Below are positions 3,420-60,709 of a stretch of DNA of 64,000 bases, piece by piece; the stretch's first letter is position 1; each line of letters starts with the position of its first letter. The stretch comes from Trichoplax sp. H2 (Eukaryota). A program made the position numbers and the translations under genes. The DNA is taken from contig NOWV01000157.1 of NCBI GenBank assembly GCA_003344405.1, forward strand, positions 62,001 through 126,000, read 5' to 3'. The notes below the pieces were generated by a model, which was not told where the DNA came from, searched no databases, and saw only the letters and a list, made by a program, of their open reading frames with translations.

Positions 3420-4720
3420 AAGATGCTGTAGTACAGTGCAGTATTGTAGCCTATGTACTGTACGCTACTGTCCCTCTTGAGCCATTTTGGATATTTTTTC
3501 GACAGTACTGTACACTGTACACTGTACAGGATGCGTCCCATACTGTACTGTGTGTACAGTACATACTGTACTGTACAGTACTGTAGGTTTGGACGGTGTT
3601 ATTGGACAGTACTGTACGTACGGTACAGTATACTGTACTGTAGGTCTGTAGCAATCATACCGTTAGATTGCTATTGCCTTAATTCAATATTACCTGAACT
3701 CAGTACGTTACAAACTTGCTATTGTTACAGGTTCAATATTCAAAATCGTGATTGATTACTTACAGTAATCTACAAATGTGATATTCAACATCTATTCTAC
3801 GCGTTAATAGTACGAACCTTCAATTCGCTTGTTAGTATTAACTCTACAGTACTGTAGATACAGTACAGTACACAATACACTCTCATTGTACACTGTACAC
3901 TGTACTGCGAGATGTAGTGGAATTCTGTAAACCGTGAACGGCGGATGCAGAGAGATAGTGGCCCATGATGCCGTGCGTGCCACTACCGTATGCTGTACAG
4001 TAAAACGTACACAGTACACCACACTACAACTTTGCGCTGTAGCCTGACCACTGACCAGCTCGGGCGACACCATCGAAATCCCATGTACCGTGTACAGTGT
4101 ACAGTACTCTATTGTACTGCACTGTACCATACGAACTCTATATTCTGAGAACTTTCGATGCAGTGACGGTAGAAGGGTTTGATCTAGCACAGACTGCACA
4201 CAGTGCACTACAGTACCATCATTAGCGATCAGTACAAATTAATCTGAGACTATCCCATATTTACCTTTATGGAGTATTCCGCCATACAGTACACAGTGTA
4301 GTACTATCTATTTCATACAGCGACGTATAAATAACAGAGAAAATCCCTAGTACAGTAGTTATTTTCATTCTGGAATCTACAATATTAATGGAAACGTTTT
4401 ACAGCACAGTACAGTACAATACTGTACTGCACTCTACTGATTCTGCTCCGTAAAACTGAAAGTTGTCCCTTTTCGAACCATCGTCGTCACGCTTCATTAA
4501 CAGAAAGTACTGTACAGTACAAATGTACAGTACAATTCTGTACTGTACAGTACTGCACTCTACTGATTCTGCTCTGTAACTTCAAGTTGTCCTTTCGGAC
4601 CATCGTCGTCACGCTTTATTAAACATTATATGCAATAACTGTAAACATAAGAGAGAAAGGATAAAGTCAATCCATTAGAGCGGCTGCGCGAAAGAAAGGG
4701 CTAAATTACAGTACACTCTA
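3420..4720. repeat. CAGTA/TACTG pentamer-rich low-complexity island upstream of RPL3
   Basis: Dozens of TACTGTAC/GTACAGTA copies in both orientations; they generate spurious YCTV/TVQY ORFs. Confidence 0.85.
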
Positions 4721-4760
4721 CTGATTCTGCTCCGTAAAGTTCTCCCTTTTTGGACCGTCA
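4424..4760. repeat. Three copies of a ~75-bp unit (third copy truncated)
   Basis: CACTCTACTGATTCTGCTC...GTCC(C)TTT...ACC at ~4424-4500, 4550-4622 and 4712-4760. Confidence 0.85.
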
Positions 4761-5260
4761 GCCCATGCTAATGCCAACAGCCAGCCCAACACCATGTTGG
4801 ACTTCCTCAATCCATACGGTAACCTACTGGACTTGAAGAACTGGTGCTCCCACGGCTAGCCCTTGTATCGAGTGAGTGAGTGGTCAAGTACTACGCAAAG
4901 TGATATGTTGGACATGGTGGCCATAGGATTTAAAGCAAGCATGGAGACTGTCAGGCTACTTGACCATCAAATACTGTTCGTTGCTGTAGCATTGCTTGTC
5001 CGCATACTGCGATGGCAGAAAGGCATTGCAGGACGTCTGCAATGCTGCAGGAACAACTATTTATGGCGATGCTCATTTCATTTGAATGAAATCATTTTAA
5101 TAGAACTTGAATGTGTTTGATTGAGCTGCGCTACTCAACTGTCTACGAGATGCTACTATTACTGCAGCTCATTTCAACATGCATCACGATATCGTTGCAA
5201 TGCTTCAACATGAACATGTCTATCGCAGAGAGTACAGTCTAGCGGTTGGCAATGAATAGC
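4760..5260 (+). pseudogene. Possible decayed ankyrin-repeat gene, copy A
   Basis: Stop-interrupted frame containing ATITAAHFNMHHDIVAML (ankyrin-like); patchy nucleotide similarity to 8270-8870. Confidence 0.3.
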
Positions 5261-5647
5261 CATCAATATTATTTAATGCTATGTAATGGATAAAGAACAT
5301 GTTGGTAAATCTTGATCAATATCATGACAGTAAGGCTAAGGCAATGCATAAAAACAGCATAAAACGTGCTTGCAAAATGACCATGATCGAAGCGGTCTCT
5401 ACTGCTTACAAATGAAGTCATCGATGCAAAATATTTTCTGACTGCAATTGTCAACAACATGTGAGGCACATACATTGAAATAGTCTACTAACAATCGTTC
5501 ATTTTTAATTACAAATGTTGCTTTTCATACAAGCAACCAAGGAAACACGTCAATGATATAGTAATTTCTTACATGGTCGGCACAAATATCAAAATACGCG
5601 ATGTTGAGGTAGTGAAAAATAGCAACGGTCGGAATGCTGCGTAATCA

Positions 5648-6814
5648 TTAATCTTGAGTGACCTTTTCCAATTCAGCGTACTCTGGCAAATCCTCTACTT
5701 TTTGAGGAACTTGCTTCGGCTCTACGGTCGATACTGGCGTGTAAACAGCCGAATTGACCCTATGGATCTCTAGCCGACCACGAGGAAAATGTCGCTTGTA
5801 ATATATAATAGCAATAGTCAGTAGAAAACAACAATCTAAAACCGCTAACGCAACATGGATCATGACAATCGCAGTAGTATTTAGAGGAACTGGAACAGAT
5901 GGAGGCTTATGAGTGATGCTAGAAGCTGTTGCAGTGGCTACTTGTTGACTAGTTGCAGCTTTCCATTGACATTTAGATCCGGTATATTCATCTGAACAGT
6001 AGCATGTTTGATTATTTTCATCATTTTGAACTAGAGAACAAACACCGTTATGCACGCAATGACAGTCATTTCCAGTTGCTCTTGCTGGCCCTGATACTAT
6101 TGCTGATGCGGTTAAAAGTGTTGTATTCCATTTTCCAAGACATTCTATCCTTAAGCTATACAAGCCATAATTCACCTACGTCAAAGAAAATTTCATTCTC
6201 CGTCTATTAATCACATAAAAAACACTTCAATCTAAGACCAATGTACCGTCCAATTTAAATATATCCTATGAATAGTTGGTGCTCCATTCACGGTTTCCTA
6301 CCTGAAAAAATTCAATGACATTGCCAGGAAATGAATTCGTCAAACTTGCGTTCAAAGGAGGACTTCTTATGGCTGCCAACACATTTTTTTCACATCCAAA
6401 TACTTTCGCTCGCAATTGAAATGGAAAGACTGCTACTGTTAATGTTATATTTGTAACGTCAGTTTGTGGTATAACTTGGCCATCTTCATCCAACCATAGA
6501 ATGACTCCTCTTGTCCGTGAATTGATATATAAAATATTTTCTTTCACTAAACTATTACCATTGTTACAACGAATGTAATAAAATTCTACTTCATCATCAT
6601 AATTATAAGAGAACGTTATTCTATTATCAGTAGATTGTTGAATTTTGCCGTTAGGAAATGCTATGACTGTCCACTGAACCGACGATGATGGCTGAGTTGA
6701 AGACGGCATACAATAATCCACATATAAACTTGAAGAAGGCAATGTTACATTTTGACAGGAGCCAAAATATAAACTCGCATACAGCGATAAAAGTGCAGTA
6801 GCTAGAAAAGGCAT
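5648..6814 (-). CDS. Type I membrane protein: signal peptide, Ig-like region(s), one EGF-like domain, TM helix, short Tyr-containing tail (~346 aa)
   Basis: Exon 1 6814-6302 (CAG|GTAGGA) joins exon 2 6175-5648 (TAG|GTG) in phase 0. Hydrophobic N-terminus; six-Cys CHCVHNGVC...CYCSDEYTGSKC; TM AIVMIHVALAVLDCCFLLTIAIIYY followed by KRH. Confidence 0.85.
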
Positions 6815-8059
6815 ATAGGTATATAATTTTGATCAACGAACAGATTTGGCCAAAAGAAGAAAACGATATAAATTGCTATAAAGCTAGAGATTACAGCCAG
6901 AAAAGCAGCCGGAGCAAATTCAAATGCTATAGACTTCGTCGCTTCAAATAGTGGATCAAATCATTGGTTGTTAATATCAGTCATCATAGAAATTGAGTAG
7001 TGTTGATTATTGTTTGTCTTAACAATTGTTGTTGGCGGCCATAACAACTTGGATAAATAATCTGCTAGAACCAAATAAAGTCCAGTTTACTGATGATGAA
7101 TGATAAATCACGTGCAAATCAACATGTCCATAACTTGCTATAGGTAGGGTACGATACTATAAATGTACAGTAGATAGAAATTTTACCAGAGTAAATGCAC
7201 AAGAAGTGCATCTATCTGTTTACTAGAAAGAAAAATATTCCAACCCAATTTGAAGACTAAATTTGGTATCATAATGATGTTTGGTAACTGATGAATCACT
7301 ACCGGTATGTTGTGCTGTCAACAAGATGTATTTCAATTCCAGCCAGTAACAAGCGTTATTTTCGTGGCAGAATCGAAAGCTAAATTAAATTATAGAGTAT
7401 GTGGTAAATCTTATAGCGTTTGCATTTCATATTTGAAGTAAATTGTCTAAATACTTTCTACCGTAATTTGACTGTGCTACTTCGGATTACGCTGACCTGA
7501 AACAACAATAACGTATAAAAACAAATCCACAAACAACATCAGCTATATGATACATGTTTTGTCAGTCATGATAACACTAGTACTAAGATTATTTTGAATT
7601 TCGTAGATTGATAGAACTGATTCAGAGCGATATTTTTCAGAGACTACGTAAGAATTCGATATTAAGGAAACAACTCAAAAATATGCGGCTAAATATGTAG
7701 ACCATGATTATTTTTTTGATAGATCGGTCTACTTATTATTACTTTCAATTTGGCAAATGAAATTTTCTGAGCATAGCGGTATATAAATGTGGAGACGACA
7801 AATTACGGAAACGATTTTTCCGCATATACCAGCTATGAGTAATCAATTCTAGTGTTAAATTTCCATGCTATAGTAAGTAGTACGCTAAGTGAACTACTGT
7901 CGTTCCGTTTTGATGGTGCTCTGCTGTCTACTATTAAAGAAGAAATAATCCATAAGATAGCAGCTCATTTTGCATACAATTATAGTATTATCCAGGACAG
8001 TGTAAGGAAGACAGGCTTGTTCTAGGTTAAACATTTCCCTCGACATGTAACCTATGAGT

Positions 8060-8197
8060 AGGCAAATTAAAATCCTTGTCATAGATTAAAGATATTCCTC
8101 ATCATTTAACCCTGAATAGGGAAAATTAAAATCCTTGTTATAGACTAAAGATTTTTCCTCATCATTTAACTCCTGAGAAGGCAAATTTAAATCCTTA
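8060..8197. repeat. ~59-bp tandem repeat, about 2.3 copies
   Basis: GGCAAATTAAAATCCTTGT...TTCCTCATCATTTAAC(T)CCTGA repeated. Confidence 0.85.
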
Positions 8198-8269
8198 TAC
8201 AGAAACGGGGTTAACTTTGTAGCTAGAATCATTACTTGTACAACCTATACGTTTAAAGCGTCTATAGTT

Positions 8270-27281: not shown

Positions 27282-27729
27282 TTAGTCGATGTTGATTTCG
27301 TATCCTGCAGGTAGCGTTCCCCATCTTGGGTTTCTAGGGCTAAATTCTGTTAGCATAGAATAGATAACATCATCAGTGAGTTGGACCATAACGAGTTCAA
27401 GTAAATACTCTGTTATAAAAGATTGAGTACCATCTCCTATCAATAAGGTAAACTATTGCTAGCAAATTGGTGGGTAGCTTACGTTTCTCTTTGTATGCAG
27501 TGAGAGCTTCCATATAATCGACCATCTCTTGCCTGCAATTTTTCTTTGCATTGACTCCTTGACGCCTGGTACATTCGCTCACACGCTCTCTTAAGACTCG
27601 GATCTCTTCTCGATCGATCCATCTATCTCTGACATACTGATTACGAGCTCTATACCAAGCTACCGGATCGCTTCTATCGATTTCCTCGATAGTCGGTACT
27701 CTCTCAAATTCTCTCTGAAATTTATCCAT
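27282..27729 (-). CDS. NDUFB10: NADH:ubiquinone oxidoreductase subunit B10, short 103-aa form
   Basis: Coding exons 27729-27483 and 27346-27282; REFERVPTIEE...RDRWIDREEIRVLRERVSECTRRQGVNAKKNC (CX11C) matches the NDUFB10 core. A non-coding first exon ends at 28108 (AAG|GTAAGC). Confidence 0.88.
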
Positions 27730-28139
27730 GCGACTATCCACTAATCGATAGCGGAGATTAATCTTTGGCAGAAAAAATCTAGACATTGGAAATGAAAATG
27801 GATGAACATGAGCTATCTACGTAGCACAATGAAGGCGATGCCTAAAGGCTGGCTGTTTATAATTTTAAGGCAAAATTCACATGATGGATAGTGAATATTG
27901 TGGCTAAGGAAGGAAGAAAATTTGGAACATGCTCAAACTCAACTACGACATCACTGCTAATGCAGGGATGAAAAACATCTTTACTTTATTTTTGTGGCTA
28001 TCTAAAGTTGAATACGGTAGTGTAGATACTTTCGATTTAGATTATAGCTCTCATTCTTAGTAATAGATATCAATTTGGATGAAAATGGAGATCAAGATGG
28101 CGCTTACCTTCCTCCGTTGCGGCAGAGAAACGTTGGACT

Positions 28140-29260
28140 CCTTGTACCGTGCTGTACCGTACAGTACCGTATAAACATAAGGTAGTACTGTACTGTACTG
28201 TGGTATACTGTACAGTGTACAGTACTATATACAGTAGTACAGCACACCATGGAATACTGTACACTGTACAGTACTGTACTGTACAGTACTATCTGGACTC
28301 ACGCGTCTCCTTGTACTGTAGGCTCCAGCCGCTATCTGAGCCGACAGACAGACAGACACTTGGCCACCTTCGAATACAGACAGTCGATTACAGTAGTGAA
28401 TGGACTGATTTTTTGTTCTATATTAGGTAATATTATATATTGTATTGCATTGCCTGTGACTAAACTCCGCTTGGAAGTAGTCACCTTAGATCATCCATGT
28501 CATTCAACTTCATACGAGTGATTTCGAGAAGAGACAAGCAAGATCCATACTGTGTAACGAACTAGTTTTCCCCATTTTTCGGCCTCATCTGGTATGAAAA
28601 GTCCACCCATCCGATGTCTGATTACGATCATTTGAACCACCAGTACGTACAGTACTGTACTGTACAGTACAATACAGATCACTTTTCGCCCTCATCTGGT
28701 ATGAAAGGTCCGTCCATCCGATGCCTGATTACGATCATTCGAACATCAATACAAATCACTTTTCGGCTTTTCGCCCTCATCTGGTATGAAAAGTCCATCC
28801 ATCCGATGCCCGATTACGATCATTCGAACAACTGCCAACAGTACAGTACCGACTGTACCGTACAGTACGATTTTACAATGTACAGTACAGTACTGTACAG
28901 TACAGATCAGACGAGCGCTACAGTATGCAGTACTGTAAGCAAATTAGATTGAATATACTCTACTGTACGCAATTGCAACGTGCAGCTATCACACGCTGAC
29001 AAGGGTCGACAGATTCAAATCCAGCTGGAGCAGCTTTGCACATTCGGTGGCCATTGCATTAAGCGATTGGTAAAGTTTCCACTTGGCTAGAAACAGCATC
29101 ATAACACCTTGTGCATACTCGGCAATACAGTACGTAGCTCTTGTGGCTTGGGGCAATTTCTTTAGGCTAATTATACCCCAAATTATCCAAGAGATTGTCT
29201 TGATTCCAGTACCGTATTTGGAAGAATTATTCATCTTGATACCCTCGTCCATTCAATAGC
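28140..29260. promoter_or_regulatory. Divergent (probably bidirectional) promoter region NDUFB10/MRPS22 with a CAGTA pentamer island
   Basis: Head-to-head genes about 1.1 kb apart; dense TACTGTAC/GTACAGTA at 28140-28320 and 28840-28970. Confidence 0.7.
28576..28830. repeat. Three interspersed copies of a ~62-bp unit
   Basis: TTTTCG(G/C)CCTCATCTGGTATGAAA..TCC..CCATCCGATG..(T/C)GATTACGATCATT(T/C)GAAC at ~28576, 28683 and 28769. Confidence 0.9.
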
Positions 29261-29267
29261 AAGAGTA

Positions 29268-31904: not shown

Positions 31905-33470
31905 CAAGTTATAGCTGGGTACGGTAGGATGGTGTAGTTATCGAATCCTATAGTTCACCTAGACTAGTTATCTAATGATAGAGTTAACCTAGACAGTATC
32001 CTTTTGCAATTTCAATCCAAATTATAGCAGGGTTAGGTGGGATGGTCTAATCATCCAGTTAACCTAGACAGTGTCCCTTTGCAATTTCAATCCAAATTAT
32101 AGCTGGGTACGGTAGGATGGTGTAGTTATCGAATCCTACAGTTCACCTAGACTAGTTGTCTAATGATAGAGTTAACCTAGACAGTATCCTTTTGCAGTTT
32201 CAATCCAAATTATAGCAAGGTTAGGTGGGATGGTCTAATCATCCAGAATCCTACAGTTCACCTAGACTAGTTATCTAATGATAGAGTTAACCTAGACAGT
32301 ATCCTTTTGCAGTTTCAATCCAAATTATAGCAAGGTTAGGTGGGATGGTCTAATCATCCAGTTAACCTAGACAGTGTCCCTTTGCAATTTCAATCCAAGT
32401 TATAGCTGGGTACGGTAGGATGGTCTAGTTATCGAATCCTACAGTTCACCTAGACTAGTTGTCTAATGATAGAGTTAACCTAGACAGTATCCTTTTGCAG
32501 TTTCAATCCAAATTATAGCAAGGTTAGGTGGGATGGTCTAATCATCCAGTTAACCTAGACAGTGTCCCTTTGCAATTTCAATCCAAATTATAGCTGGGTA
32601 CGGTAGGATGGTCTAGTTATCGAATCCTACAGTTCACCTAGACTAGTTATCTAATGATAGAGTTAACCTAGACAGTATCCTTTTGCAGTTTCAATCCAAA
32701 TTATAGCAAGGTTAGGTGGGATGGTCTAATCATCCAGTTAACCTAGACAGTGTCCCTTTGCAATTTCAATCCAAATTATAGCTGGGTACGGTAGGATGGT
32801 CTAGTTATCGAATCCTACAGTTCACCTAGACTAGTTATCTAATGATAGAGTTAACCTAGACAGTATCCTTTTGCAGTTTCAATCCAAATTATAGCAAGGT
32901 TAGGTGGGATGGTCTAATCATCCAGTTAACCTAGACAGTGTCCCTTTGCAATTTCAATCCAAATTATAGCTGGGTACGGTAGGATGGTCTAGTTATCGAA
33001 TCCTACAGTTCACCTAGACTAGTTATCTAATGATAGAGTTCACCTAGACAGTATCCTTTTGCAGTTTCAATCCAAATTATAGCAAGGTTAGGTGGGATGG
33101 TCTAATCATCCAGTTAACCTAGACAGTGTCCCTTTGCAATTTCAATCCAAATTATAGCTGGGTACGGTAGGATGGTCTAGTTATCGAATCCTACAGTTCA
33201 CCTAGACTAGTTATCTAATGATAGAGTTAACCTAGACAGTATCCTTTTGCAGTTTCAATCCAAATTATAGCAGGGTTAGGTAGGATGGTCGAGTCATGTA
33301 ATCATACCGTCGAGTTAACCAAGACAGTGTCCTTTTGCCATTTCAATCCAAATTATTCGGGTTAGGCAGGATGGTCTAGTCATCGAATCATACAGTTAAC
33401 CTAGACAGTGTCCCCTTGCAATTGGAATCCAAACTACAGCAGGGTAAGGTAGAGGATGGTCTAGTTATTC
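31905..33470. repeat. 188-bp higher-order tandem satellite (~7 units) with diverged ~80-bp monomers at the right edge
   Basis: GCTGGGTACGG recurs at 31914, 32102, 32405, 32593, 32781, 32969 and 33157 (188-bp spacing, one 303-bp unit with an internal duplication). Each unit comprises two related subunits (~113 + ~75 bp). Confidence 0.97.
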
Positions 33471-33801
33471 AATCATTTAGCTTATGACTAAAGTCATGCG
33501 GGACCTGCGTTGTAAGCAGGAAACGACAGTGGTGCAAGTAAGTCCAGAGCTAGCTGACAGGATGCCAATTTGACACACACAGTGTACAGTCGAAGGATTG
33601 GCGTTGGCATGTGCTGCTTAGCCTATACTGTACAACGATTCCATACTACTGTACTGAACACTCATTGTCCACTCTCCAGTATGTATGAGTCATAGGCATA
33701 CCCACTATAGCACAGCAGGGATTCCACTTTGCCTCCATCTCACCATGTACAGTATGGACAACTAGGGCTGATCGCTGACAGAGTACAAGTTTTACTATGG
33801 C

Positions 33802-33870
33802 TTGACCCTGGTTGGTTTGACCATGGTTGGTTTTACCCTGGTTGGTTTAACCCTGGTTGGTTTTACCCTG
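33802..33870. repeat. 15-bp minisatellite, about 4.6 copies
   Basis: (TT(G/T/A)ACC(C/A)TGGTTGGT)n. Confidence 0.9.
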
Positions 33871-33953
33871 ATTTCACCCTTTGGTGAAGCACGTTACGGT
33901 GTATTGTACTGTATCTTCCAATACCATCTTGCCCGCCTTAAAAATCCCATCGA

Positions 33954-34020
33954 CGATACGATACGGTACGGTACGGTACGATACGGTACGGTACGATACG
34001 GTACGGTACAGCGGTACCGT
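33954..34020. repeat. (CGGTA/CGATA)n pentamer run just upstream of the septin first exon
   Basis: GATACGATACGGTACGGTACGGTACGATACGGTAC... Confidence 0.9.
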
Positions 34021-34198
34021 ATCCACTTGCAGTACTTTCACACCAGCTATACCAATGTGTCGGGCAATCAGTGCAAGCAATTTCGTCGTCAGCTTGAAAT
34101 AGTCAAAGCCAAAAGGAAGGCCAACCCAAGGCTGCATCGAAGCATCTTACTACTTGTAGAGCTTGCTGTAGACATCGACATCGATTGAGGAAATCGCA

Positions 34199-37100
34199 AT
34201 GAGTGAGGTAAGCAACAGATCGACAGGTATCATCCATTCAACCATATTTAAGAATGAAATGGGCTGGGGGTAGTTATGAAATCATGTGTAGACTGCTCTT
34301 GGCTCAATACTGCAACTTGACAATCGATAGCGTCGTCTTGGGTCTACTCGTTATCATCTTGGGATTAATCATACATGGAATGGATCAATTGGCTTGTTAG
34401 GGCTGAGGATGCTTGCTATGCCAGGCGATTCTTCCGCTTATCCATTGCCAAGTTACGACAGTTTGATACACTGTGTTGGTCCATAGATAGCTTGGAGAAG
34501 GCGTCATTGAACCCCATGGCGATAGATCTTTTCCGCATCGATCCACAACGATCGTGACTAGCGTATTTCAGTCGAAAACACCATCAGGACATCATCGATC
34601 ACTAACCTCCAATCAACTCTATGATAGAGAGTTGTTTCTGCACTTTTATAGTTGATAGCTTGTTAATTGCAACATCTCTTTTTAAAGCAAGCAAGAAATG
34701 GCAGATTAAAACTAGACTCAAATACTTGTTCAGTCAAGTTTGCACAATTCAATGTACTGTCTACAAGTCCTTTCAAATTGAAATAATTAATCCAATATTA
34801 GTACGCTAAAATTCGGGCGTTAATGAAGTAGTAGAATACCAACATGATAAGGATGAATACAACGATCTCGCAATGCTATGAAAGCAATCGTTTTCATCAT
34901 TTATTAATAGTATTGAAACTGATAGCAATACATCTGCTTGCAGAATTCAATGTTGTGATCGGTTGCATAGTATCTAGCCCGTAACGATCGGGGGCAGAAT
35001 ACATAAACTGCACGTTAATTAGGACGGCGATAAAAGATATCCGATACGTACAACTGATGGTATGACTATTTATTCAATCAAGTATTAATGCCTCTTTTCT
35101 GGCAACACAATATCGTTCAATCCGCAAAGAGTTCTCTTACTTTGGCTTATTTCTGTGAAAAGATGCCTTGAGTAATCATCACAAGCAAAGCTTCATTATG
35201 AAATTTCTGACTCGCAACTCCATTGAATGAATTGGTGGTAGCCAACTACGAGTATAAATGGACATGATACACATGTACATCAATGATGCGCGTACAGTAA
35301 CATACCATCTTAATGAATTAGCCGTCAAAGCTGCGATCATGGACGACCAATGAGAAAAATTGTCTATAACTGCATACCTTTCCAACGTATACACACTGTT
35401 GATTAATGCTAACGCTTGCCAAATTGATTGGTAGAATCCTTTGTCACTGATTTACAATAAAACAAAAGTCAGAGTTACCGAGGGCTTCTGGTGTTGAAGA
35501 CACTAATAATAATAATTAATTAAATTCCATTAGGACCCTAGTGTATTGAGAAGACGAATTATACCACAAATAGTCTGTAATATCCTAGTGTAGCTCTAAT
35601 TACAGCCTTATCAAGTTTGAACTGCAGCAGTGTAAAAGATGAATTGTATTACATGCATCATGCGACAGAAACTCTTTCGTCTGCTTACCATTTGACTTTG
35701 AGAACGTACAGTACAGTATGCACGTATGTACAATATAAATCTAATCAATTATTTTTGGTTTGCTTATTTAATTTAGTTTCCGGTAGAAAGTATCCTAACA
35801 AACGATCAGATTAAAAGTAAGTATAATATTTAGACATTCTTCTTCATAATTAATACCGCGTATTGCCTGCTACATTAGTATGTTTAATTGATGATATTGT
35901 TGTCGCTTCCTTCAAATACGGACGTAATTCAGATTTTGCAATTCGCAATGCTGGGCTTTTTACTGGCAAAGCTAGATTAGTGTCTATAGTACTGGTAGTA
36001 AACAGAAGGCGAATAGTTTTGTAATACTTTGAACATAAAATGATTAATAATTATAGGATCATTTCTTTGATATTAGCAGTCAAGATGATCGTTCAATTTT
36101 GCAATCATTTCTTATTCACTTACTGAACGTAAATTAGGATACAAAATAGTTTCCTAATGATCCTATTACTATTGCAGCAGTACTTTTTAGAGGAACTTTC
36201 TTTCTGCTGAGATAATTTCTGTCTTTATTATAAGTCATAAATGTTTCGCTAAATGGTCTCAGTAACATCGTAAACGCGATCATGTTGTGCTTTCAATTCC
36301 ATAAGAATACATGAATACCCTGAAATGTATAAACGAAATGTGATATCGACTAGACACTAATTAGTATTCTCCAGGCAATCATATCTTATTGTACATCAAT
36401 TAAATTTAGATCTGCACATTGCCTTCGATAAGCGTGATGAAGGCAAAAAAGGTGCCGTTCCTCCGGAAAAAATTACGGATTTAATCAAGGAAGTTTTTGG
36501 CCCACCTCTAAATGGCACTTTAATTGGTTATGCGAAGGACCTAAGCAAAAACCTTTCTGAAAATGGTCAAGAGATTTTAAAATATTTAGCGCTTGTTTTA
36601 CAACTAAATTATTAAACAGTGTCAAGTTAAGTCAAGCACAGAATCAATAGGAATTAAAATTTACTTCTTCTTTCCATTAGGTGGTTTATCGTATGAAAAT
36701 TTTATAGTGGTTGTGAAACATTTAATGTTTGAGACAACGCGCTGGGGAGTCCTAAAGACGGCACCTGAAAGGCCTATTGGACTGGATAGTATTCAGGATC
36801 AAGTCAAGCAGAAATTGCTTCGTTTTGGATTAACATTCAATATTATGATAGTAGGTCGGTATCTTTTCCTTCTGAATAAATTGTGCAATTTAGATTGACT
36901 GGTATGATCGGATCTTTGTTTCTAGGTTCTTCTGGCTTGGGTAAATCCACTATGATGAACACATTGTTCAAGAGCAAAGTGAATCGATGGATGGCATCAG
37001 ATACTAGTCAAGAGCCAATAATTCCGCCAACTGTAGAAATTAAGACTATTTCTCACGGTAGTTTTTCATAGTATCCATAGCTGTTGATAGGATACTTGAT

Positions 37101-39753: not shown

Positions 39754-40783
39754 GTAAACAAATAACAAATCAATAATATTTGACATTTCGTAAATAAGAT
39801 TAACCAAGCTGGTTGTGTTGATGCAAAACATTGACGTATCATTTTTAGACTTTACACTTAGTGAATGATCTACTGCATTATACTTTGCTTCACATTAAAA
39901 GATTATATTTTATAAGTGCCAGTTTATGGAGCGATACTGTATACTAACTGAACCATTCGTTTTTCCTCAGTACAGTAGTGTTAATTTGGAGATGATTCTG
40001 ATTTAATTTACTACTATACTGTATTTGTTTACTGTTTACGCTGTTTAATTAGCGCACAATGAGCATTACGGTTTGCACATTGCTGCAGGCCTACAGTGAG
40101 GCTTAACAGTTACCAGTAGTATTGCAAATCACAGTGCACAATACAGTACTGTATAACCAGTATCTGCCTTGGCCTGTACTGCAGTACTGTATTGTATTGC
40201 CATCTTGTTGAACTTGTATTCAGTAGTACATCGATGGATTTTATTTTTGTTCAATTATCAGCTCTCAGCTGTTACTGCTTTACTAAACGGCCAGTTCAGT
40301 GCTACTGTTACCTTAACAAGTTGAAAACCTGTTCATGTAATAGATAATTAGAATTATAGATGCACCGTATGGTTGGTCAGTCTGCTTTCACAGCATACTC
40401 GTATAACAACACCATCACCACCATTGGTATTGCAGTGTGACCATGTATTTAAGACGTTATTAAGACGATGATCTACAGTGATACAGTGCTACACTGTAAT
40501 GCAGTTTGGCACGGTAGAATACTGTAGATGACCAGAAAATTCGATATTTATGGACGGTGAATTTTCAAGATTAATCTAGTACAATCTACCGTAGACCCTG
40601 GTAGGATAAGAAGGTTTAAACTTGTAAACAAGGACTTGTAATGATTAATGACATCTACTAGCTCGTGGCATCGTGGGGCTAATTTCTTTTTAGGAACCAT
40701 ACTGGGTTAGCCCTCTTAATTACAAGTCCCGACTAGTCCCTGCTTAAACTACAGTACAGTATACAGCACAACGGTTGTAAACA
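39754..40783. promoter_or_regulatory. Cluster of forkhead sites (GTAAACA/TGTTTAC) upstream of FoxK
   Basis: Exact sites at 39754, 40026, 40033, 40624 and 40777. Confidence 0.5.
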
Positions 40784-40806
40784 GATTGAATAAACTGAAC
40801 CATTTT

Positions 40807-40845
40807 AATATTATTATTATTATTATTATAATATTATTATATTAT
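40807..40845. repeat. Imperfect (ATT)n microsatellite
   Basis: Visible AT-only run of ATT units. Confidence 0.8.
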
Positions 40846-40909
40846 TTTTTGATTATATATTTTTTTATATTTATCGTACAGTATTTGTTTTCTTTCTTTT
40901 GTTTAGATC

Positions 40910-41220
40910 AGCCCAGTACAGTACTGTACTGTACAGTACACAATACAATATTGTACTAGACCGTCCAGTGTACATTGTACTGTAACTTACAGTACTTTTT
41001 TGATTCTTTTACAAAACATTGCTGAAACTACAGTACTGTATTGTACAGTACAGCGTACTGTAGCCAACTGCTGCTGGTGCACTCCTGATGCTCTGTCAAT
41101 GCCGAGCCAAGTTTCAATTAATATGAAGTACTGTACAGTACTTACCACTCGCACAGACTGTAAAACGTACTGTAAACTTGTACTGTAAAAGTATACAGTA
41201 CACTGTACTGTACATACAAC
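40910..41220. repeat. CAGTA/TACTG pentamer island directly upstream of FoxK
   Basis: Dense GTACAGTACTGTACTGTAC copies ending ~150 bp before the ATG. Confidence 0.85.
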
Positions 41221-41349: not shown

Positions 41350-46678
<5,329 letters not shown>

Positions 46679-48749
46679 AAAAAGTTTATATTTGGCTTAA
46701 GAAATATATTTAAACATTATAGTCGTATTCAATACTACAATTTGAATGTTTCATTAATGTTAATTTGTGAAAGTTTCTAACGCATAGTTAATTAACGTCA
46801 AACGATCAAATCATGTTAACAGCTACGAGGCTAGGTATCTATAAATATTTCAAATTTGGACATGCATTAACTAATAATAGGAGTTAAAGAAATTTTTTTT
46901 ATCATCAATATCTCCATCGGAAGATCACATGAAATTTTGCGAAATACTATATTGTATGTCAATGTCAGCAATCTTATAGGTCTTTATTTGTAATATTATT
47001 CAAGCTATCATAAATTACCGTAATATCTCGATTAATAATCACGTCAAATGTTTGGTTATCTTGCCGAATATTGGAACATCACTTAAAGATAATACAGCAT
47101 TAAAATATTCTGTTGACTATTCTGCTTGTGTGTGGAATAGTCTGAAATTCCATATTTGAGCACTCTTCGTTCTGTATATTGGCTTATTTAGCGTCAGCCA
47201 AGAGATTTTTTTGTCTGTAGTTGTAAATACAATACACAACATACTGTTTGTACTGCTTACCATATATCTATGTACAGTTGGCTTGTTTTAGCTATTATTA
47301 ATTTACAACAATATTGTACTATCCATTGCCTTTGCTTGGGTATCTAAAATGAAATTTCAAATGACTAGCCTGCTGGTCCTTAGAGTCGGTAGACGTCCAG
47401 CTATGTTTGTACGTACCTGATAAAACGTACTTTGGACGCATGCTTATGAATTTAGAGTATTACACTATTATTGATCGAGTGATCGTTACTAAATTAAAAA
47501 TATCCAATTTTTTCTCCATCTTTTGTTGTATAATCAGTACGGCATATCTGTATCTACAGTATGTAATTTTACTTTTAGTCATTTATAGCGCTAATTTACT
47601 GCTTTAAATTGGCTCAAATTTACTTTTACGCTTACTGTACAGTATTACTGTAGATATCCTAAAATTGTATTGACTGTGGTAATAATTTTTACACTTCATG
47701 CCCTCAAGTTTTTACCTTTAAAGATCAATATGAGGCATTACATGATTGCTTCTGTGAATCGATTTGCATGTATTGCAATGCTACGAAAATATTACACCAA
47801 TAATTTCTAATTACTTTACTATAGTGTTAATTATGTAAGTTATTTACGAGATATCCTATATGAGCGGGATCAATGCTTCTACGAGTATATTGGAGGGGCT
47901 GGGACGTACTGTACACTGCTACTGCATAAAATTAGCGATACTAAATGATAATATTTCTTAGAAGATGTCGCTCTCGTGACACATTATGCAAATACTAAAT
48001 ACTGTATCTTGACAGATGTATGTTACTGCAGTCTTTTCGAGAATCGACCATTGCAGTATTCAGTGTACATGTTATTCACTGCAGTGGAAAATGCGAATTG
48101 CTCCTCCAGTAGTCATTGCACGGTATTTTCAATCCAATTTTTCAGGTCTCTAGTTTCTACTGCTGCTTTGCAAAGGATTTTTCGATACGAAGATTTACAG
48201 TAGCTATCGAATGTGTAAGCAACTTTCTACATTTAATTTACTGCAAAGTATACAAATTGTACCGGTAGACATTCTACAAATCGGCCATTGAAGTTTGCAC
48301 TATGTTGTATAACATCCTGTTACCGCCCAAGTACGAAATCCAGTCAATTTGCAAAAGCTATACATCTTGTATCATTAACCGATACAAATATTTCAAGGTT
48401 AATGTTCAGTGTAACAGTAAATGTCATAATCATAGAACTTGTCAAAATAAATAATAATTTTCATAATCAGAACATTATTAATTCAATAATAGCTACTTCA
48501 TTGATAATAGTATCTCGAAATGTTTGGCAATTCCACGTTACATATATATTGATAATTTGAATTAGTTTATTATTATAATAGTTACTAATATAATCATCCA
48601 AGAAATAGAGATTCTCTGATTTTATGAGGAATATTACTGCTTGAATAAATGTCGTTTCTCTGATTTACGTCTATTGGAATTTTTTCAGTTTGCCAACTGA
48701 CTAGGCATTTCGCAAATACACTGAACTTCGTATTCAAACGGGTATATAT

Positions 48750-48942: not shown

Positions 48943-49742
48943 GTAGATATCCATGACAAGAGTAACGTCGACTATCTTAGTTCAGTATCGGACACAATTC
49001 TCCCTATAATTTATACGGTGATGGACTGCTTCATGGTACAGAATACAGTAGAGTAATTTATATCAGCTGGCTTTGAATTTTGTAACAGGAAGTTGGCGGG
49101 AAATTTCTGCCACTGTAGCAATTTGTATCCATAGACTGAATGTGCAGACGGTACAGTATGATATAGACTTAGACCGAGGATCGGTCCGGTTCGGTTCAAG
49201 TAGACGTACTGTACCGGTAGAGGTGAGCAGCCTGGGTTGAAGTGTGTCAGTTGACCTCCGTACTACGATGCAATCGTCAGCAACAAGTTCGTCTTCAAAT
49301 TCTCCATCTTCTCAATGAAAAAATGGGAAAATGAAGGATTAATCCCAGGAAGAAACAAGTTGAATGAATAAAACAGATCCTGTACTAATTGATAATATTA
49401 TTAGCCAGAGTAATTACAGTCAAAGGGAAGAAAAGAGAAGATAGACAGTAGAGTAATCTCATTCTTACAATACGAGTATACAGGTAAAATAACGACGGAT
49501 GCAATGTTATTGTCAGTGAATTTTTTTCTGAAAGTTGGCTTGAATCATTTACTCGTTTTGGATATACTTCCTTTTACCCATTTTCAATTAATTCTAGCCA
49601 TAAATAGGATGGTTATTGATTTAAAACGGTATAGCGGAGGGTCTTTTACAATATTACCTCGAATTATACTGAAACTATTGCATGATCTTGATCTACTGTA
49701 GATACCATTTAATGAAAGAAAAAGAAACTACAAATCGTAACC

Positions 49743-52700
49743 ATGTCAATATCACTCGAGGATGAAATTGATCAGTTTTATCAGCAGCAAAACGAAGAAG
49801 ACTTTGAAAAACGCTTTGAAGATGAATTTGAAGTGATGAAAGAAGTAGAAGGTTAGTCAAAAATGGATATGCGTCATTGAAATCGATTTGATATGTCTTG
49901 CTACCTCCTACGTATTGCACTCCATGGTGGGGTATTCAACAGGTCTTTTGGTATAGCAATGGCTTTGTCTCATAATAATGTGGTTACTAGATATTATAAG
50001 TGGCATTTTGTAGGCAATAGTCGTTCCTATTCTATAAAATTTTACAATCTTGAATGAATATAACACTGCTGTATACTTAATTCACCTATAAGTAAGCAAA
50101 AAACTGAAGTGACTTATCTATAATAGGTCATTTTAATGGATGATCTTGTCTGTAATAAATTACCAATAATTAATACGGTAGTCGTTTTATGAACTACTAT
50201 TCTATAAATGGCATTGATCAGCCCATAGTCGTTCTCATTCTATAAAATATTGGAGTTTAGACATCATAGAATGACTACGGTATGTTCATTGCACCTGATG
50301 TCTAAGCCTTTTAAAAAGAACTGTTATAAACTACATGCATTATTAATATATTTTCGATTGATACAATAAGCGGTGTGGATTATATCGCCTTTATCAGCTA
50401 GATAAGTTACGGTATATTGCTGTGGTGTTGATGACACTAGCTAGCAATCACAAAAGAGTCACCATGCCATCGATTCCTATTTTCGAATACACTTATCATT
50501 TATGGCAAATAAAACATTTTCATACTGTAAAGGAGATCATAGCGGATTGATTTGCTAATAATTCCTGGTTTTTCCAATAATGTAGCGAATCAGGATGAAA
50601 ATGAGCCAAAGTCAAAACGTAAGCTCTCATACGACCAACCATTAGTTGATGAATCGAGTTCAAACCAGCAAAGTTCATTTTCATTGCCAGGTAATAATAT
50701 ATTTGGAGCTGGCTACAATTTTACAAACCTATGCTAAATTAATTGTTGTATTAATAATGCTGTTGAATCCCATTTCATTTGTTACGCTGACTGAAAATCT
50801 TTTCAGCATCTACAAACTATTTATACTGTAGCAATAAATACTAAACTACAACTTACACGTTAGAATTGAAGAAAAGCAAGAATTCAACAACGACAGATAA
50901 TGTTGAAGCTACTGATACCCACCACTGCCATTCTCCGTTAGCATCTGAAATTGATCAAAATATTCCTAATGTAGTATCTATACCATTGATTGGAAGCGAA
51001 TGGTTGCCTGTTACTGGTAGCGATGGTAGGAGAGTTTATGTTCGGTTTAAAAAAAGTGACACCGATAATTTTGGCAGTCCACTGCTAGCAAGTCGGAATC
51101 ATTCGAAAGGGCAACTAATTTCACCATCAGGACAGTTACAATTATTATCAACTCCATTTAGTATCTTAAGGGATCAAGTAGAAGAAATGGTAAGTTAACC
51201 GTACACAATTTGCAAAATTCAGTTAAGATAGTTCTGTTCTACTTCATTCTAACCTTACACATCCAATATTGTATATCTAATAGAGACTTAAGAAATTATT
51301 GAATACGACCAATACTGAAGCGGAACCTAGCAAAATGTTTGTATTACTACGTTTTTATCTTTATTTCGTAACAATAAGTAAGAGATGATCGTAATAATAG
51401 TATTAACGCAGAATTAATGATCATTTTTCACATATTTATAAAAAAGTGTTTAAATTTATTATTTAATTGTAGGGAAATAGAGGAGGGTGATGCAAATGAT
51501 ACAGATGGTAATGTTAGTCATCAAGACGAAAAGCAGAAATCAAAAGCAATGGTATCATTATGGGTTGATAAATATTCTCCGCATCATTATAGAGAATTAC
51601 TTAGTGATCATGTAAGGCAATAGCGTTAACAGACATTTATTCTTGTTTATGTAGAATAGGCATTATCATTGCTGCCTTGACGCTATAAAATTACTATTCG
51701 TATCAAATAATTTATAATAATGAAATCAGCCATTAAATTTATGCCTTGGGCTTGTGATTAGCGCAATATCTGATACTACAGTAACTATTTAATGTTTCAA
51801 ATATTGATAGCCCTCTGCTTATCGTTGCCATTGATCATTTTATCGCACTGTACATAGTCAACAAACCGTAGCTTACTGTCATGGCTAAAATTATGGGATA
51901 AGACTGTTTTTGGCAAAGATTTCAATATTCCTGATGAAACACTTGCAAATCAATTGGTAAAATTTGCGCTAAAGTTTACCTTTCGAATGTGTATTTTGCT
52001 TCATTGTCTGACATGCTGTTCAAAATAAATTCATAGGCCGTCGACACTCAAAATCGTCCTTTAAAGAAGGTTTGATAAGATAAAGTGATGCTAATGAACG
52101 GTAGTTCGTGAATACAAAAGATGTGGCACTGTAAGAAAAAATTAAAGTACTGCTTTACTTATGCCTTAGGTCGCGTTACTTTGTGGGCCTCCAGGATTAG
52201 GTAAAACGACACTTGCTCACGTCATTGCTAGACACGCTGGATATAATGTATTAGAGATGAATGCTAGGTCAGTTTATGCAAATTAAACAAAGATTGAGCT
52301 CATTTTAGTACATATCTGGCATATGTTGTATTTAACTTATAATCTTTTACAACATATACAGCGATGATCGCTCTGTGGAAATATTTCGCCAAAGAATTGA
52401 ATCAGCTACTCAAATGCATTCAATTAGTGGAGATGAAAAGGGATTGCCTAATTGCTTACTGATTGACGAAATTGATGGGGCTCCAACCGTAAGTTGGAGC
52501 GTTTTTCTTTTAATTAAGGATTAATGTATCGCCTGAACAAAAATTGTGCTATTTATTTTTTACGGCTATAATTTTATCTTGATTTATTTAATCGTTACAA
52601 TATTATAATTGTAGGCGTCTGTGGAGGTGTTGATCAAATTTATAAGGAACACTGAGAATGGTAATAAAGTTGATCATACCTTTGACGTTATCTATAATAT

Positions 52701-57467: not shown

Positions 57468-57684
57468 GACCATTAAGCTCGTTGTTGGGCACTGTACTAG
57501 ATCGATCGATGTCCGATTACTAACTGTTAGCTGTTTAGGCCAGTATCCCAATGTCATCAAAGCGTAGTTTGATATAGAAATAGTGTCTGGCCTAATATCG
57601 ATCACTGCCCTATACTTTAGTGTAAATGTAAAGCATGCGCTTAAGCCACCATTTGAAACGGCATACTGTACAGTGTACAGTTAA

Positions 57685-60285
57685 CCTCTCCACTTTCGGT
57701 CCTACATGCGCTCATTTGAATATCTCTGCTCGCCAACGCCTTATATTTAGCATAATAATATTAATCAAATCATCATCGAGTCGTGATCCAGTTAGAAGAT
57801 CTAAGGCATTGGTTTCGATCGAAAATTGCTCATTTGCCTTCAGCCTTGTTAGCGATTGAGCTTTGAGTTAATGCAATTTAATAGCTCAATTTCGAAACAT
57901 CTCTAATAATCTTGCAATTAAAGCTCATCTATTTGAACTCATTACTCGAATATCCTTCCTTCATAAGTTCAAATTGGAATCATCTTTTGCAATTTATCAA
58001 CATTCTATTTAGCTATCTGTAACAAAATCAAACGGCATCAGCAATATTGAAGACCCTTTATTGCTTTCAAGTTATGCAGTGCATGATTGGCAGAAAGTAC
58101 GAACACTAACGATTCAATTTTCAGGGTGTTTTCTAATAACCGATGTTATTATACGGTAGAAGTAGCCGTTGCAATCGGACAAAATCTTCCGTTTTAATCG
58201 ATTGATTGGTACTGCAGTAATCGTATTGCTAATGTGCTTTACATTATTTCGCAGGTAGACGCGTGCAAACTAGATTCAACATTGTTAATATCATTAGCAT
58301 GATATATTATCTCATCATCTGTATATCGCATGGAGCCATTCCTTAGGTCATGCTGCTATGCTAATAAATAAACGGTAAGTCACTGTAAATAGTAAAGTCG
58401 TATTCAATCTCAAGAAACGATGAATGGGTGTGACAGTGTTATATACTGTATTAGAGTAGAAATATCTATGTTCGGATAATTCTGTTAGTCTATTCTTATT
58501 TAGTTAACTTCTAATTTAGATATACTGTTTTTTTAAGATAGCACTAACATTTTATGACAGAGACACATATACACATACCGAAATTAACAGTTATAATAGG
58601 GATTGCAAATCATCTACTTACAGTTCGAATCATTGTGATTGTAACTTACTTATGGTAGATTGTAAAATTATCGTGGAAATGTTCCGTGATAGAGGACATA
58701 TCGTAATCTGACCATTCTGTATTAGTCATTAGATGTCTATGTTCGTAGATACTGTTGTCTGCATTAAGGGAGCAATAGCTATAATTAATATCTAATTCAG
58801 TGAATGATTCCAAAGTTAATCGTACTAACTATGACTCATGAACTATTGAGAAAGAGTATATAAATGGAGTATATCGTGTAATAAAGTGGATTCTCAAACT
58901 TAGTGTTTAACGTAAAATACGAGGCGTTTAAGTCTTTGTGTAGTCTGCTAGCAGAGCAAAAGTGTTTCTGATAGTGTAGATATCGTTCCTTGATACATGG
59001 TTCAAGGAATTAACTTATTGATCGTACATTACATTATCTTGTTGCAAAGCTGTTTTGTGACAATGGGTTATCGTTTTTAGCTCATCATTTGTTTAAAATT
59101 TAACAGTAAAGCAAACCTAGAGTAATGTAGTTTATATACAGCTTTAATTTAGGTAGGATAATAGTCATGATGGCTAAAGCTTTGAAAACCTACTTTAGAA
59201 AGTAAAAGTAAATGGACTCGTAGCATAGGATAGAGTAACCAAACCTCCCGATATTATTTTGTATGATTTACGTTGTGTTCATCTCAACAATTTTTCGACT
59301 ATTGCTACGTCGTAGTGATGTGTAGATCCGATATTGCTAAGTTTCCGTTATCGTTCAGTAGTTTCATGCCTAGCTACGTTATTAACTTGCGTTGTCAACT
59401 ACTAGATTGAAAAACGGACATAGAGACCATAAAGATTGACTTTATACTGTACGAGTATATGTATATGTATAAGTTATTAGAGTGTTAATCGCTCACACTA
59501 GCACCAGCTCTTCGCCGAATTTCTACGATATCGTACAGGCTAGTTATGTTGTAGTGTTTGTCCTTTGCTATAATGTTGCAAGCATTAACTAAGGCGTAAA
59601 GACCAAGGATTAAGCACTCCCGATTAAGGTTGAACTAGTTTGAACTACTTGACGCAAAATGTTAATTTTCACCTCAAATTACGAGTATGAGGATAGCAAG
59701 TGTGAGAGATCCCAAATGCTACCGTAGGATGATAGCCAAATATGGCATACTTGCCTTATTGGACTCGGAAAATGGTCATTGCTAGTAATCTCGTCATCAT
59801 AGTTTTGCCAATCAATTCTAAGATTTGTTACTATCATGACAAACATCCTGATCTCATTCGAGAGGCGGTCATTTTTCAAATTTACAGTAGAATACAATTT
59901 TCTATCGACGTTTCTCAATCAGCATATCATGATTAGCCTGAAAATATTTCAGGTTATTCTCAATCTTTTACCAGGTTGTGAGTTGGTTGCTTGTGCAGAT
60001 TTAAACTTTACGAAAGCCGTTTGGATGATTAGCTCTGGCCCAAAAAACCAGTGCACAGCTCGCTGTTTCATTTCATTTTGCCTATTTGTAACAGGTTTTA
60101 TGCCTTGCTCATCCATTTCATGTTTATCAACTCATCTTACGCCGTCTACTGAAGTTATAGAGCATTTTAGAGCTTTAGTCGAATAAGGTTGCAACTATGA
60201 AGGGCAGCTGGCATAAAAAAAATTGCTGCAAGTATCCCAAAATGAGCTAGCTATCCTCTTCTTGCAAGTCCCTGCCCTTCTCCAT
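57685..60285 (-). pseudogene. Probable decayed multi-exon gene divergent from EME1 (possibly B-box/coiled-coil)
   Basis: Protein-like frames broken by isolated stops at 60285-59972 (ends at a GTAAAA donor) and ~58016-57685 (helical, splice-site bounded); B-box-like spacing at 59783-59696. Confidence 0.35.
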
Positions 60286-60709
60286 ATCAATATGGCCCCA
60301 TTTCTAGGCTACAGTACACAGATACCGTAAACTTGCATTTATAGGTACGGTATTCCTATACTGTAAGCTAAGACATTGAGATGCTGTACTGTAGCATATC
60401 CATCGAGAAATTTGGCATTTCAGCTATAATCCAGGAGGCAGACAACGATTTTAGTTGTGTTATCTTATCCATTAAGGCCTAGCCAAGGCTTGATGACCTT
60501 TATAATTACTAGTGTATCCATATTGAATTGGACTGTCTACAAATACTAATTAACTCGTTCAAATTTGGCTAGGGGGATTGCTTAGTAAACGTAATCGACT
60601 TGGGAAAAATAACAAATTGACGATTATCGCTTGGATTGTTCATTTTAAAACGCTTCTTAAGACAATATATTGGATAATACGACGCTAGATTGGATTATGC
60701 GCGATAAAA

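Follow-up and report, generated by a model that had tools for sequence, protein, structure and literature searches.

The DNA analysed here, referred to as the window, is a 64-kb stretch of the Trichoplax sp. H2 genome (GenBank assembly GCA_003344405.1, contig NOWV01000157.1, positions 62,001 to 126,000 of the forward strand), and all positions are counted from its first letter. The window holds the genes for RPL3, NDUFB10, MRPS22, a septin and FoxK, a CHTF18-like gene and the uncharacterized gene TRIADDRAFT_53970, and upstream of them lie islands of the pentamers TACTG and CAGTA in mixed orientation, which an earlier note on this DNA had described as a lineage-specific promoter code. These islands are the promoter-proximal (ACAGT)n repeat of Trichoplax adhaerens published in 2010, and their detection here is a rediscovery. 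Placozoans are a key group for the origin of animal gene regulation, and about a third of their genes have been reported to lie in promoter hubs. The repeat and its association with promoters have been in print since 2010, so the window adds detail and critique but no discovery. Two points are added, namely that three published observations probably concern one (GTACN)n element and that this type of array is widespread in other eukaryotes.

Pentamer islands upstream of genes in the window

Upstream of RPL3, NDUFB10/MRPS22, the septin and FoxK, the two pentamers occurred at 35.4, 37.3, 15.5 and 27.3 per kb, as compared to a background of 4.3 per kb outside the six intervals that the earlier note had named. 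Those intervals were picked after inspection of the data, and the Poisson P values for them are therefore descriptive only. Together the six intervals make up 6.3% of the window and held 122 of its 379 pentamers, and in the septin interval the palindromic heptamer TACNGTA reached 26.6 per kb. The remaining two intervals, upstream of CHTF18 and of the gene that had been called EME1, had been described as weaker and were truly weak, with three pentamers each and with three and five heptamers, respectively. The region from 7 to 27 kb had been called nearly free of the pentamers. It was not empty but at background level, with 57 pentamers (2.9 per kb), 15 heptamers and no cluster of at least four.

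Pfam supported the names given to RPL3, NDUFB10, MRPS22, the septin and FoxK (FHA and Forkhead domains), and the identities of the first three fit the housekeeping class. A Walker-A exon of the CHTF18-like gene (52173–52286) had human CTF18 as its best solved-structure matches (E 2.5e-14). The name EME1 could not be confirmed; the gene is the uncharacterized TRIADDRAFT_53970 and showed neither an ERCC4 nor a solved-structure match. For 90% of its length, the open reading frame (ORF) at 62025–62711 matched T. adhaerens TRIADDRAFT_53970 with 100% identity, and the annotated N-terminus of the latter matched the ORF at 60689–60898.

RPL3 lies on the minus strand, and the island upstream of it (3404–4552) contained 32 TACNGTA heptamers, with A, T, C and G as the central base in 16, 13, 1 and 2 cases, at a GC content of 0.41. 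An array-plus-spacer unit of ~125 bp was found as a tandem triplication at 4400–4740. A tiny first exon appears to end at 3313 (...ATCATG/GTAGGT), which would place the start codon at 3315–3313. The nearest heptamer (3404) would then be 89 bp upstream of this predicted ATG and ~50 bp upstream of a pyrimidine tract at ~3338–3355, which precedes the first exon and is similar to a terminal oligopyrimidine (TOP) tract.

NDUFB10 (minus strand, first Met at 27786, with an RNA-run contig extending to 27927) and MRPS22 (plus strand, first Met at 29268) are divergent, and the intergenic region between them had an island on each side. The NDUFB10-side island (28013–28395) held 16 heptamers at a GC content of 0.44 and included a 17-bp perfect run at 28185–28201. 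The MRPS22-side island (28648–28967) held 4 + 10 heptamers; its main arrays stopped 301 bp upstream of the first Met, and an extra pair of heptamers was found at 29126. Between the arrays, at 28575–28830, were three tandem copies of a 64-nt unit that were 88–95% identical, and neither this unit nor the ~125-bp unit at 4400–4740 matched an Rfam family, a tRNA or a Pfam domain. A separate observation was the element GCGCCATCTTG at 28090–28105 on the minus strand, which has the 5′ region of NDUFB10 on one side and the arrays on the other and resembles the consensus of a YY1 site.

The septin promoter carried a G/C-variant array, (ACGGT/ACGAT)n, at 33907–34021, with nine heptamers (seven G, one C and one T), a GC content of 0.50 and a 15-bp higher-order pattern. 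The related CGGTA and CGATA units that had been pointed out earlier were real and corresponded to 11.4 copies of ACGGT at 33953–34009. The array stopped 178 bp before a start codon that is predicted at 34199–34201, where the exon would end in AGTGAG/GTAAGC. Thus, a nearly pure G-type array was found here at the position where other promoters have A/T-type arrays. In the bin that spans this array (33670–34336), the summed contig depth of the two RNA runs was 12,747 and 9,319, as compared to tens elsewhere, and the contigs diverged at 33998 into GC-rich letters. The (ACGGT)n or (TGGTTTGACCCTGGT)n repeat is probably also present in highly expressed RNAs, whether from the same organism or from a different one, and these RNAs would account for the peak.

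FoxK had a distal upstream cluster of six heptamers (39935–40191) and a proximal upstream island of 19 heptamers (40750–41212; ten A and nine T), with 156 bp between its end and the first Met of the gene (41368). Intron 1 of FoxK (41752–44712; 2,961 bp), for which the GT..AG joint was seen in two RNA runs, contained 24 heptamers (8.1 per kb), ten of them in a cluster at 42930–43100 and the others as scattered units across 41759–44613. A further set of contigs from these RNA runs also covered the intron almost completely, at about half the exon depth, which may reflect an intronic promoter or enhancer, a retained intron or DNA carry-over. Smaller clusters were found between the FoxK 3′ region and the start of CHTF18 (47555–47652; four heptamers), upstream of the CHTF18-like gene (49044–49215; three heptamers together with CGGTC/CGGTT units) and upstream of TRIADDRAFT_53970, at a distance of ~320 bp from its first coding exon (60310–60393; five heptamers, one A, two T, one C and one G). 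The earlier list of sites had not included the clusters at 39935–40191, 42930–43100 and 47555–47652.

In all, strong islands were present at five genes in the window (RPL3, NDUFB10, MRPS22, septin and FoxK), and they stopped 89–301 bp from the start codons of these genes. No cluster of at least four heptamers was found upstream of two genes that are probably specialised, namely an EGF-like membrane protein (ATG at 6814) and a single-exon Ras-like GTPase (ATG at 23774). The EGF-like gene (5651–6832, minus strand) adjoins the RPL3 island. Its product has a start that looks like a signal peptide, a cysteine pattern similar to that of EGF domains and a transmembrane stretch, and its ORF at 5651–6175 gave a weak EGF match in the solved-structure search (E 0.0096).

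The repeat unit is a GTAC palindrome with a 5-bp period

The window contained 379 TACTG/CAGTA pentamers (186 TACTG and 193 CAGTA), as compared to ~133 expected from base composition and to 135.8 ± 10.4 (maximum 160) in 200 dinucleotide shuffles. The pentamers ACAGT/ACTGT were similarly enriched (347 versus 132 expected), and the 8-mer TACTGTAC/GTACAGTA was found 86 times when 2.4 were expected. All of the top over-represented 6- to 8-mers were fragments of one pattern, for which the underlying unit was the palindrome GTAC at a 5-bp period. Successive GTAC sites were exactly 5 bp apart 58 times, as compared to 0.5 times in shuffled sequence (maximum 3), and GTACWGTAC and GTACSGTAC occurred 49 and 9 times versus 0.4 and 0.17 in shuffles. 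A minor phase of 7 bp, (GTACACT)n, was also present. Tandem Repeats Finder reported period-5 arrays at 3541, 28263, 28641, 28838 and 40914.

The heptamer TACNGTA occurred 203 times versus 22 expected, with N being A in 83, T in 75, G in 28 and C in 17 cases, and 119 of the 203 fell within 11 clusters of at least four. The longer palindrome TACTGTACAGTA was present in 10 copies. Perfect arrays were short, with 19 of 26 consisting of two units and the longest of four, and perfect runs of 14–17 bp were found just six times in 64 kb. The two orientations were balanced in every island, as is expected of a palindromic site, and neighbouring A/T units had the same orientation in 10 pairs and different orientations in 18. 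The GC content was modestly higher in the islands than outside (0.395 versus 0.337).

The G/C-type heptamers were not distributed independently of the A/T-type. Twenty-three of the 45 were found within 100 bp of an A/T-type heptamer, whereas 2000 random placements gave 10.3 on average (maximum 20), and both types were mixed in single runs such as GTACCGTACAGTACCGTA at 28155–28171. The proximity of the two types, the mixed runs and the presence of a G-type array in the same promoter position at the septin gene show that the A, T, G and C variants are one (GTACN)n family, and 'ACGG' and 'ACAGT' are probably two readings of one element.

The islands are a repeat already described in 2010

Among the microsatellites of T. 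adhaerens, ACAGT is the predominant motif, and it accounts for 78% of the pentanucleotide repeats (Wang, Zhang, Meyer and Bao 2010, Biol Direct 5:18, PMC2871265). According to the same study, 54% of all ACAGT motifs are found at most 1 kb upstream of a gene and 85% at most 5 kb upstream. The Gene Ontology terms enriched among the associated genes are translation, with 58 genes that mostly encode ribosomal proteins, and protein modification, with 155 genes. Wang et al. suggested that ACAGT is a transcription-factor binding site. Additional file 5 of that study lists arrays on scaffold_2, within ~29 kb, for RPL3 (63703), an NDUFB10-like gene (53964) and a septin (21019), all of which are genes of the window. 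The 17-bp ACAGT run that it gives at 464 bp from the NDUFB10-like gene 53964 has the same length as the perfect run at 28185–28201. When the listed coordinates were transferred to the window, this run alone could be matched by length and the other runs did not map cleanly, perhaps due to assembly differences around a 188-bp satellite (see below). Thus, organism, sequence, upstream position and the enrichment for ribosomal-protein genes all agree, and genes of the window are in the published table. In contrast to the results presented here, Wang et al. treated the repeat as a microsatellite of one motif, and the sections of their paper that were consulted do not describe the GTAC core, the mixed orientations, the G/C variants or the island structure.

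Two later studies in print bear on the same sequence. Kim et al. (2025, Nature 642:1097, PMC12221973) found that ~3,000 housekeeping promoters of T. adhaerens, named GP1, form promoter hubs. The GP1 promoters have H3K4me3 peaks and peaks in the assay for transposase-accessible chromatin (ATAC), and they carry an enriched motif, reported at loop anchors too, that is also found at the orthologous promoters of three further placozoans. This motif is like the arrays in being located at housekeeping promoters, and the study adds accessible chromatin, presence in four placozoans and a proposed architectural factor. The text of Kim et al. contains neither the words microsatellite, tandem repeat and pentanucleotide nor the title of Wang et al. 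2010. A second study applied the Chimaera network to T. adhaerens Micro-C data and reported the 'repeating motifs ACGG and ACAGT' in association with insulation (Nucleic Acids Research 2026, PMC12817080). It thereby names ACAGT and links it to chromatin folding, as an association derived from a model. It assigns ACGG to a transposable element that Kim et al. had already tied to insulation and treats ACAGT as a second motif, whereas in the window both were variants within the same arrays. The sections consulted of a further study, Najle et al. 2023 (PMC10580291), do not mention the motif.

The claim that the arrays are found at gene 5′ ends therefore holds genome-wide in the literature (PMC2871265; PMC12221973). 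The interpretation in the earlier note is partly supported, but it is not new, as the binding-site proposal had been made by Wang et al. in 2010.

The islands are not insertions of one transposon family

Kim et al. interpreted the motif as part of the terminal inverted repeats of Mutator DNA transposons, which would have inserted into the promoters of highly expressed genes and may later have been domesticated (PMC12221973). They reported that GP1 promoters frequently hold Mutator insertions with the loop-anchor motif in the terminal inverted repeat and that one family with similar consensus repeats is common to four placozoans. If the islands in the window had this origin, related sequence would be expected beyond the arrays. 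We masked the arrays (7.1% of the window) and compared ten island regions to the window with BLAST, and this gave tandem copies within islands and one 47-bp match elsewhere. The tandem copies that survived masking were the three 64-nt units at 28575–28830 and a pair at 4460–4622. The flanks of arrays elsewhere in the genome told the same story. In a DNA run, the summed contig depth was 6552 in the bin at 27667–28333, which contains arrays, as compared to ~45 elsewhere, and groups of 89, 52, 38, 33 and 30 contigs each ended in the same array. The consensus agreement of their flanks was 0.39–0.43, meaning that the flanks were unrelated. The depth over the arrays together with the unrelated flanks shows that many loci share the array.

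A scan of 153 ORFs (of 222 with at least 55 aa) found no MULE or other transposase domain in the window. A homology search by Wang et al. had assigned just 0.13% of the genome to transposable elements, with six MuDR fragments (3,498 bp) and one family of miniature inverted-repeat transposable elements in ~20 copies (PMC2871265). Thus, a single transposon family, which the earlier note had itself raised as a competing explanation, was not found to account for the islands in the window, as there was no shared sequence beyond the arrays and no transposase.

The arrays did, however, form structures that look like a terminal inverted repeat with a target-site duplication. An exact direct repeat of 9–11 bp combined with an inverted repeat of at least 10 bp was found in 12 cases, whereas 50 shuffles gave 0.88 ± 1.03 (maximum 5). 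All but one of the 12 were built of array units. Two 5-bp units make a 10-bp direct repeat and units of opposite orientation make an inverted repeat, and in this way the arrays would mimic Mutator ends. A duplication of 9–11 bp is what assigns an element to Mutator in the EDTA pipeline. Kim et al. annotated repeats with EDTA v2.1.0 (PMC12221973), in which candidates with terminal inverted repeats come from the structure-based TIR-Learner, applied without a copy-number filter and with a false discovery rate of 30.8–57.3% in rice (PMC6913007). Judged from the letters of the window, the Mutator label of the arrays looks like an annotation artefact. We consider an origin as Mutator ends very improbable.

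The arrays change by single units and by local duplication

The islands changed by single units, in one case, and by local tandem duplication. The single-unit change was a 5-bp unit at 42111–42115 in FoxK intron 1 that was present in the window and absent from the contigs of all four runs (ACTGTAAT to ACTGTACAGTAAT). In run X2, the deletion depth was 59.4/79.5, and the unit is probably polymorphic there. The duplications were those of the array-plus-spacer blocks described above.

A neutral explanation has to be weighed at this point, namely that the arrays are mutational by-products, such as scars or the results of slippage, which accumulate because promoter DNA is always open and which have no function of their own. 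In one version of this explanation the scars come from transposon excision. The heptamer TACWGTA is the canonical excision footprint of a transposon of the Tc1/Sleeping-Beauty type. It could be read as TA + CWG + TA, so that each unit would be a 5-bp insertion at a TA, and this heptamer made up 158 of the 203 in the window, the other 45 being of the G/C type. The 5-bp difference at 42111 is located at a TA, and the extra unit was an inverted form of its neighbour instead of a direct copy, which is unlike simple slippage. The excess of differing over identical orientations among neighbouring A/T units in the window was also unlike slippage. Two further observations in its favour, described below, came from metagenomes: mixed arrays in at least 104 contigs of varied organisms suggest a widespread generating process, and one of the contigs carried a DDE_1 transposase fragment.

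Several results do not fit the Tc1 version. The scan of 153 ORFs of the window found no transposase domain, and the genome was reported to contain just 11 degenerate Mariner/Tc1 fragments and no active element (PMC2871265). Neither the G/C-type units, 45 of 203, nor the 7-bp period of (GTACACT)n, nor the duplicated blocks are accounted for by such footprints. Against a neutral by-product in general, the septin array was homogeneous and had a 15-bp higher-order pattern, showing that it grew by duplication, and the change at 42111 was a single indel, which may be a gain or a loss. The motif is moreover found at orthologous promoters of four placozoans (PMC12221973), and scars would have to be formed there repeatedly. 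On balance, we find a purely neutral origin unlikely. Origin and present function are separate questions and do not exclude each other, so arrays that arose as a neutral by-product would still be compatible with a function as binding sites today.

Hairpin potential does not extend to all arrays

A second explanation without a dedicated factor is that the DNA structure alone is responsible, either by extrusion of cruciforms under transcriptional supercoiling or by an unusual affinity for nucleosomes. The mixed arrays folded as strong single-strand hairpins, and six of seven stretches had z-scores from −2.6 to −5.4 when compared to shuffles. A permissive Rfam scan gave sub-threshold matches to microRNA precursors at two tandem-unit regions; these were rejected as microRNA candidates, being hairpin artefacts of the palindromic arrays, and they reflect the same folding property. 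In the sequence, TA and CA/TG steps also recur every 5 bp. In contrast, the septin array, which has a G-type unit in one orientation and the same promoter position as the other islands, showed no hairpin excess (z −0.46; 62 of 200 shuffles folded as well). The shortness of the perfect arrays, mostly of two units and never of more than four, also speaks against a structural effect. Thus, we regard structure alone as an improbable explanation.

The same type of array is found in other eukaryotes

The earlier note had called the islands lineage-specific, and this part of the claim was not supported. One 22-mer of mixed orientation, present in three copies in the window, had exact matches in at least 104 metagenome contigs, which appear to come from other, eukaryotic organisms, and in just two contigs of a 596-Gb collection of prokaryote genomes. 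Among the matches listed, 103 loci represented 94 distinct contexts with a GC content from 0.29 to 0.64. At least 25 A/T-type heptamers were found in 32 of these 94 contexts, and the highest count was 237 in 6 kb at a satellite-like locus (L079). Pfam domains in 35 long ORFs from the metagenome loci were eukaryote-like and included protein kinase, pyruvate kinase, CFAP97, FKBP, C2H2 zinc finger, GH18 and one DDE_1. The pyruvate kinase of locus L070 had no close named organism, its best named relatives being ~50–53% identical and spread across opisthokonts and amoebozoans.

Short arrays were located shortly upstream of genes in some of these loci (L019, L020, L047, L060, L070 and L076). The array coordinates were 2940–2961 in L019, 936–1384 in L060, 3001–3022 in L076 and 1565–1602 in L070, where the array is between divergent ORFs. 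In 7 of 16 long loci an array was within ~410 bp (35–410 bp) upstream of an ORF of at least 130 aa that begins with ATG, a count without a null model that we regard as anecdotal. Three of the seven downstream ORFs had Pfam support (FKBP in L019, GH18 in L060 and CFAP97 in L070).

The orientation of neighbouring units differed between the metagenome loci and the window. There were 802 pairs with the same and 199 with different orientation in all metagenome loci, and 63 and 44 in the loci with short arrays, versus 10 and 18 in the window (Fisher P 6e-7 and 0.03, respectively). The metagenome loci had been selected by the mixed 22-mer, which was masked before the orientations were counted. Since neighbouring units agreed less in the window than in the metagenomes, the Trichoplax arrays are unusually mixed and rich in palindromes. 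The type of array as such is not specific to the placozoan lineage and is widespread in other eukaryotes.

Other features of the window

A 188-bp satellite separated the 3′ end of MRPS22 from the septin promoter (31904–33406; 6.6 copies with 95% matches and sub-repeats of 30 and 75 bp), and the RNA runs had no depth over it. A 60-bp tandem repeat (8055–8196; 2.4 copies, 82% matches) was found in the AT-rich, gene-poor region from 7 to 23 kb. Across the window, Rfam gave no match at gathering thresholds and a tRNA scan found none. A scan for sigma-70 promoters and terminators showed no excess, although the method is not applicable to an animal. Solved-structure searches with the ORFs at 62025–62711, 61236–61859, 6269–6832 and 62941–63198 gave no match, and two unnamed ORFs had no usable match in the Protein Atlas.

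A proposed multivalent promoter element

The islands are short, imperfect (GTACN)n arrays with a palindromic GTAC core every 5 bp, or sometimes every 7 bp, and a model of their function can be built on this structure. The fifth base, mostly A or T and less often G or C, sets the apparent orientation. The arrays begin ~50–300 bp from the start codon or presumed transcription start of broadly used genes, reach up to ~1.3 kb upstream and in some cases occupy the first intron. Because the palindromes TACNGTA and GTAC overlap, an island could offer many packed sites to a putative sequence-specific factor, which would probably be a dimer or multimer. By binding many times to each island, such a factor might hold constitutive promoters open and gather them in the promoter hubs that Micro-C has revealed. 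The islands themselves are assembled in place: single units are gained and lost, and blocks of array plus spacer are duplicated in tandem. We give a multivalent binding site that keeps promoters open and clustered about an even chance of being correct.

Several considerations weigh against this model. The functional evidence is wholly correlative, and the effect of an in-silico insertion in a trained network can mirror a promoter association that the network has learned. A literature search within a limited collection of papers found no binding factor and no demonstrated effect on nucleosomes. The motif of Kim et al. was equated with the arrays by way of one sentence in PMC12817080, in which the motif is called 'ACGG', which would be the G/C variant. 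Transcription starts in the window were deduced from sequence and contig ends, and the arrays interrupt the RNA-run contigs. The seven genes of the window are far too few to establish a housekeeping rule by themselves. Finally, array sequences of the same type are common in unrelated eukaryotic contigs, which a general mutational origin would explain no less well than a regulatory invention of placozoans.

A broader synthesis is offered tentatively, as one that we hold to be possible but somewhat short of probable. In this synthesis the microsatellite of 2010, the loop-anchor motif of 2025 and the ACGG/ACAGT motifs of 2026 would be one (GTACN)n element, its link to Mutator would be an artefact of structure-based annotation, and a multivalent promoter element made of repeats, not a domesticated transposon, would anchor the hubs. 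Either this element or the process that generates it might be far older and more widespread than Placozoa. If a palindromic repeat that is read by one multivalent factor does anchor the hubs, then the three-dimensional organisation of this genome would be unusually simple and tractable, and the idea of a hub element supplied by a transposon would be corrected.

Comparison with known systems

The arrays resemble the footprint of Tc1/Sleeping-Beauty transposons, TAC(A/T)GTA, in that the heptamer is identical, the central base is A or T and one 5-bp unit was gained or lost at a TA. The likeness ends there, since no such element was found in the window and the G/C variants, the 7-bp period and the duplicated blocks are left unexplained.

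The earlier note had compared the islands to vertebrate CpG islands. As in CpG islands, a compositional and positional mark is found at broadly expressed promoters, and the GC content was modestly raised. The analogy held for the position and not for the composition, as the observed/expected ratio of CpG was 0.91 in the islands versus 0.90 in the remaining window and the signal was a specific oligomer instead of a dinucleotide.

Clusters of CGATA that are recognised by BEAF-32 and DREF occur in both orientations at Drosophila housekeeping promoters, often between head-to-head genes. The protein that binds these clusters is a multimeric BED-finger protein, and the clusters have been tied to insulation and long-range contacts. 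The islands in the window are similarly clusters of a short motif in both orientations, and the septin array even contains CGATA units. The core of the Trichoplax arrays differs in being GTAC at a strict 5-bp phase, and the likeness would thus be one of a way of working and not of membership in the same family of sites.

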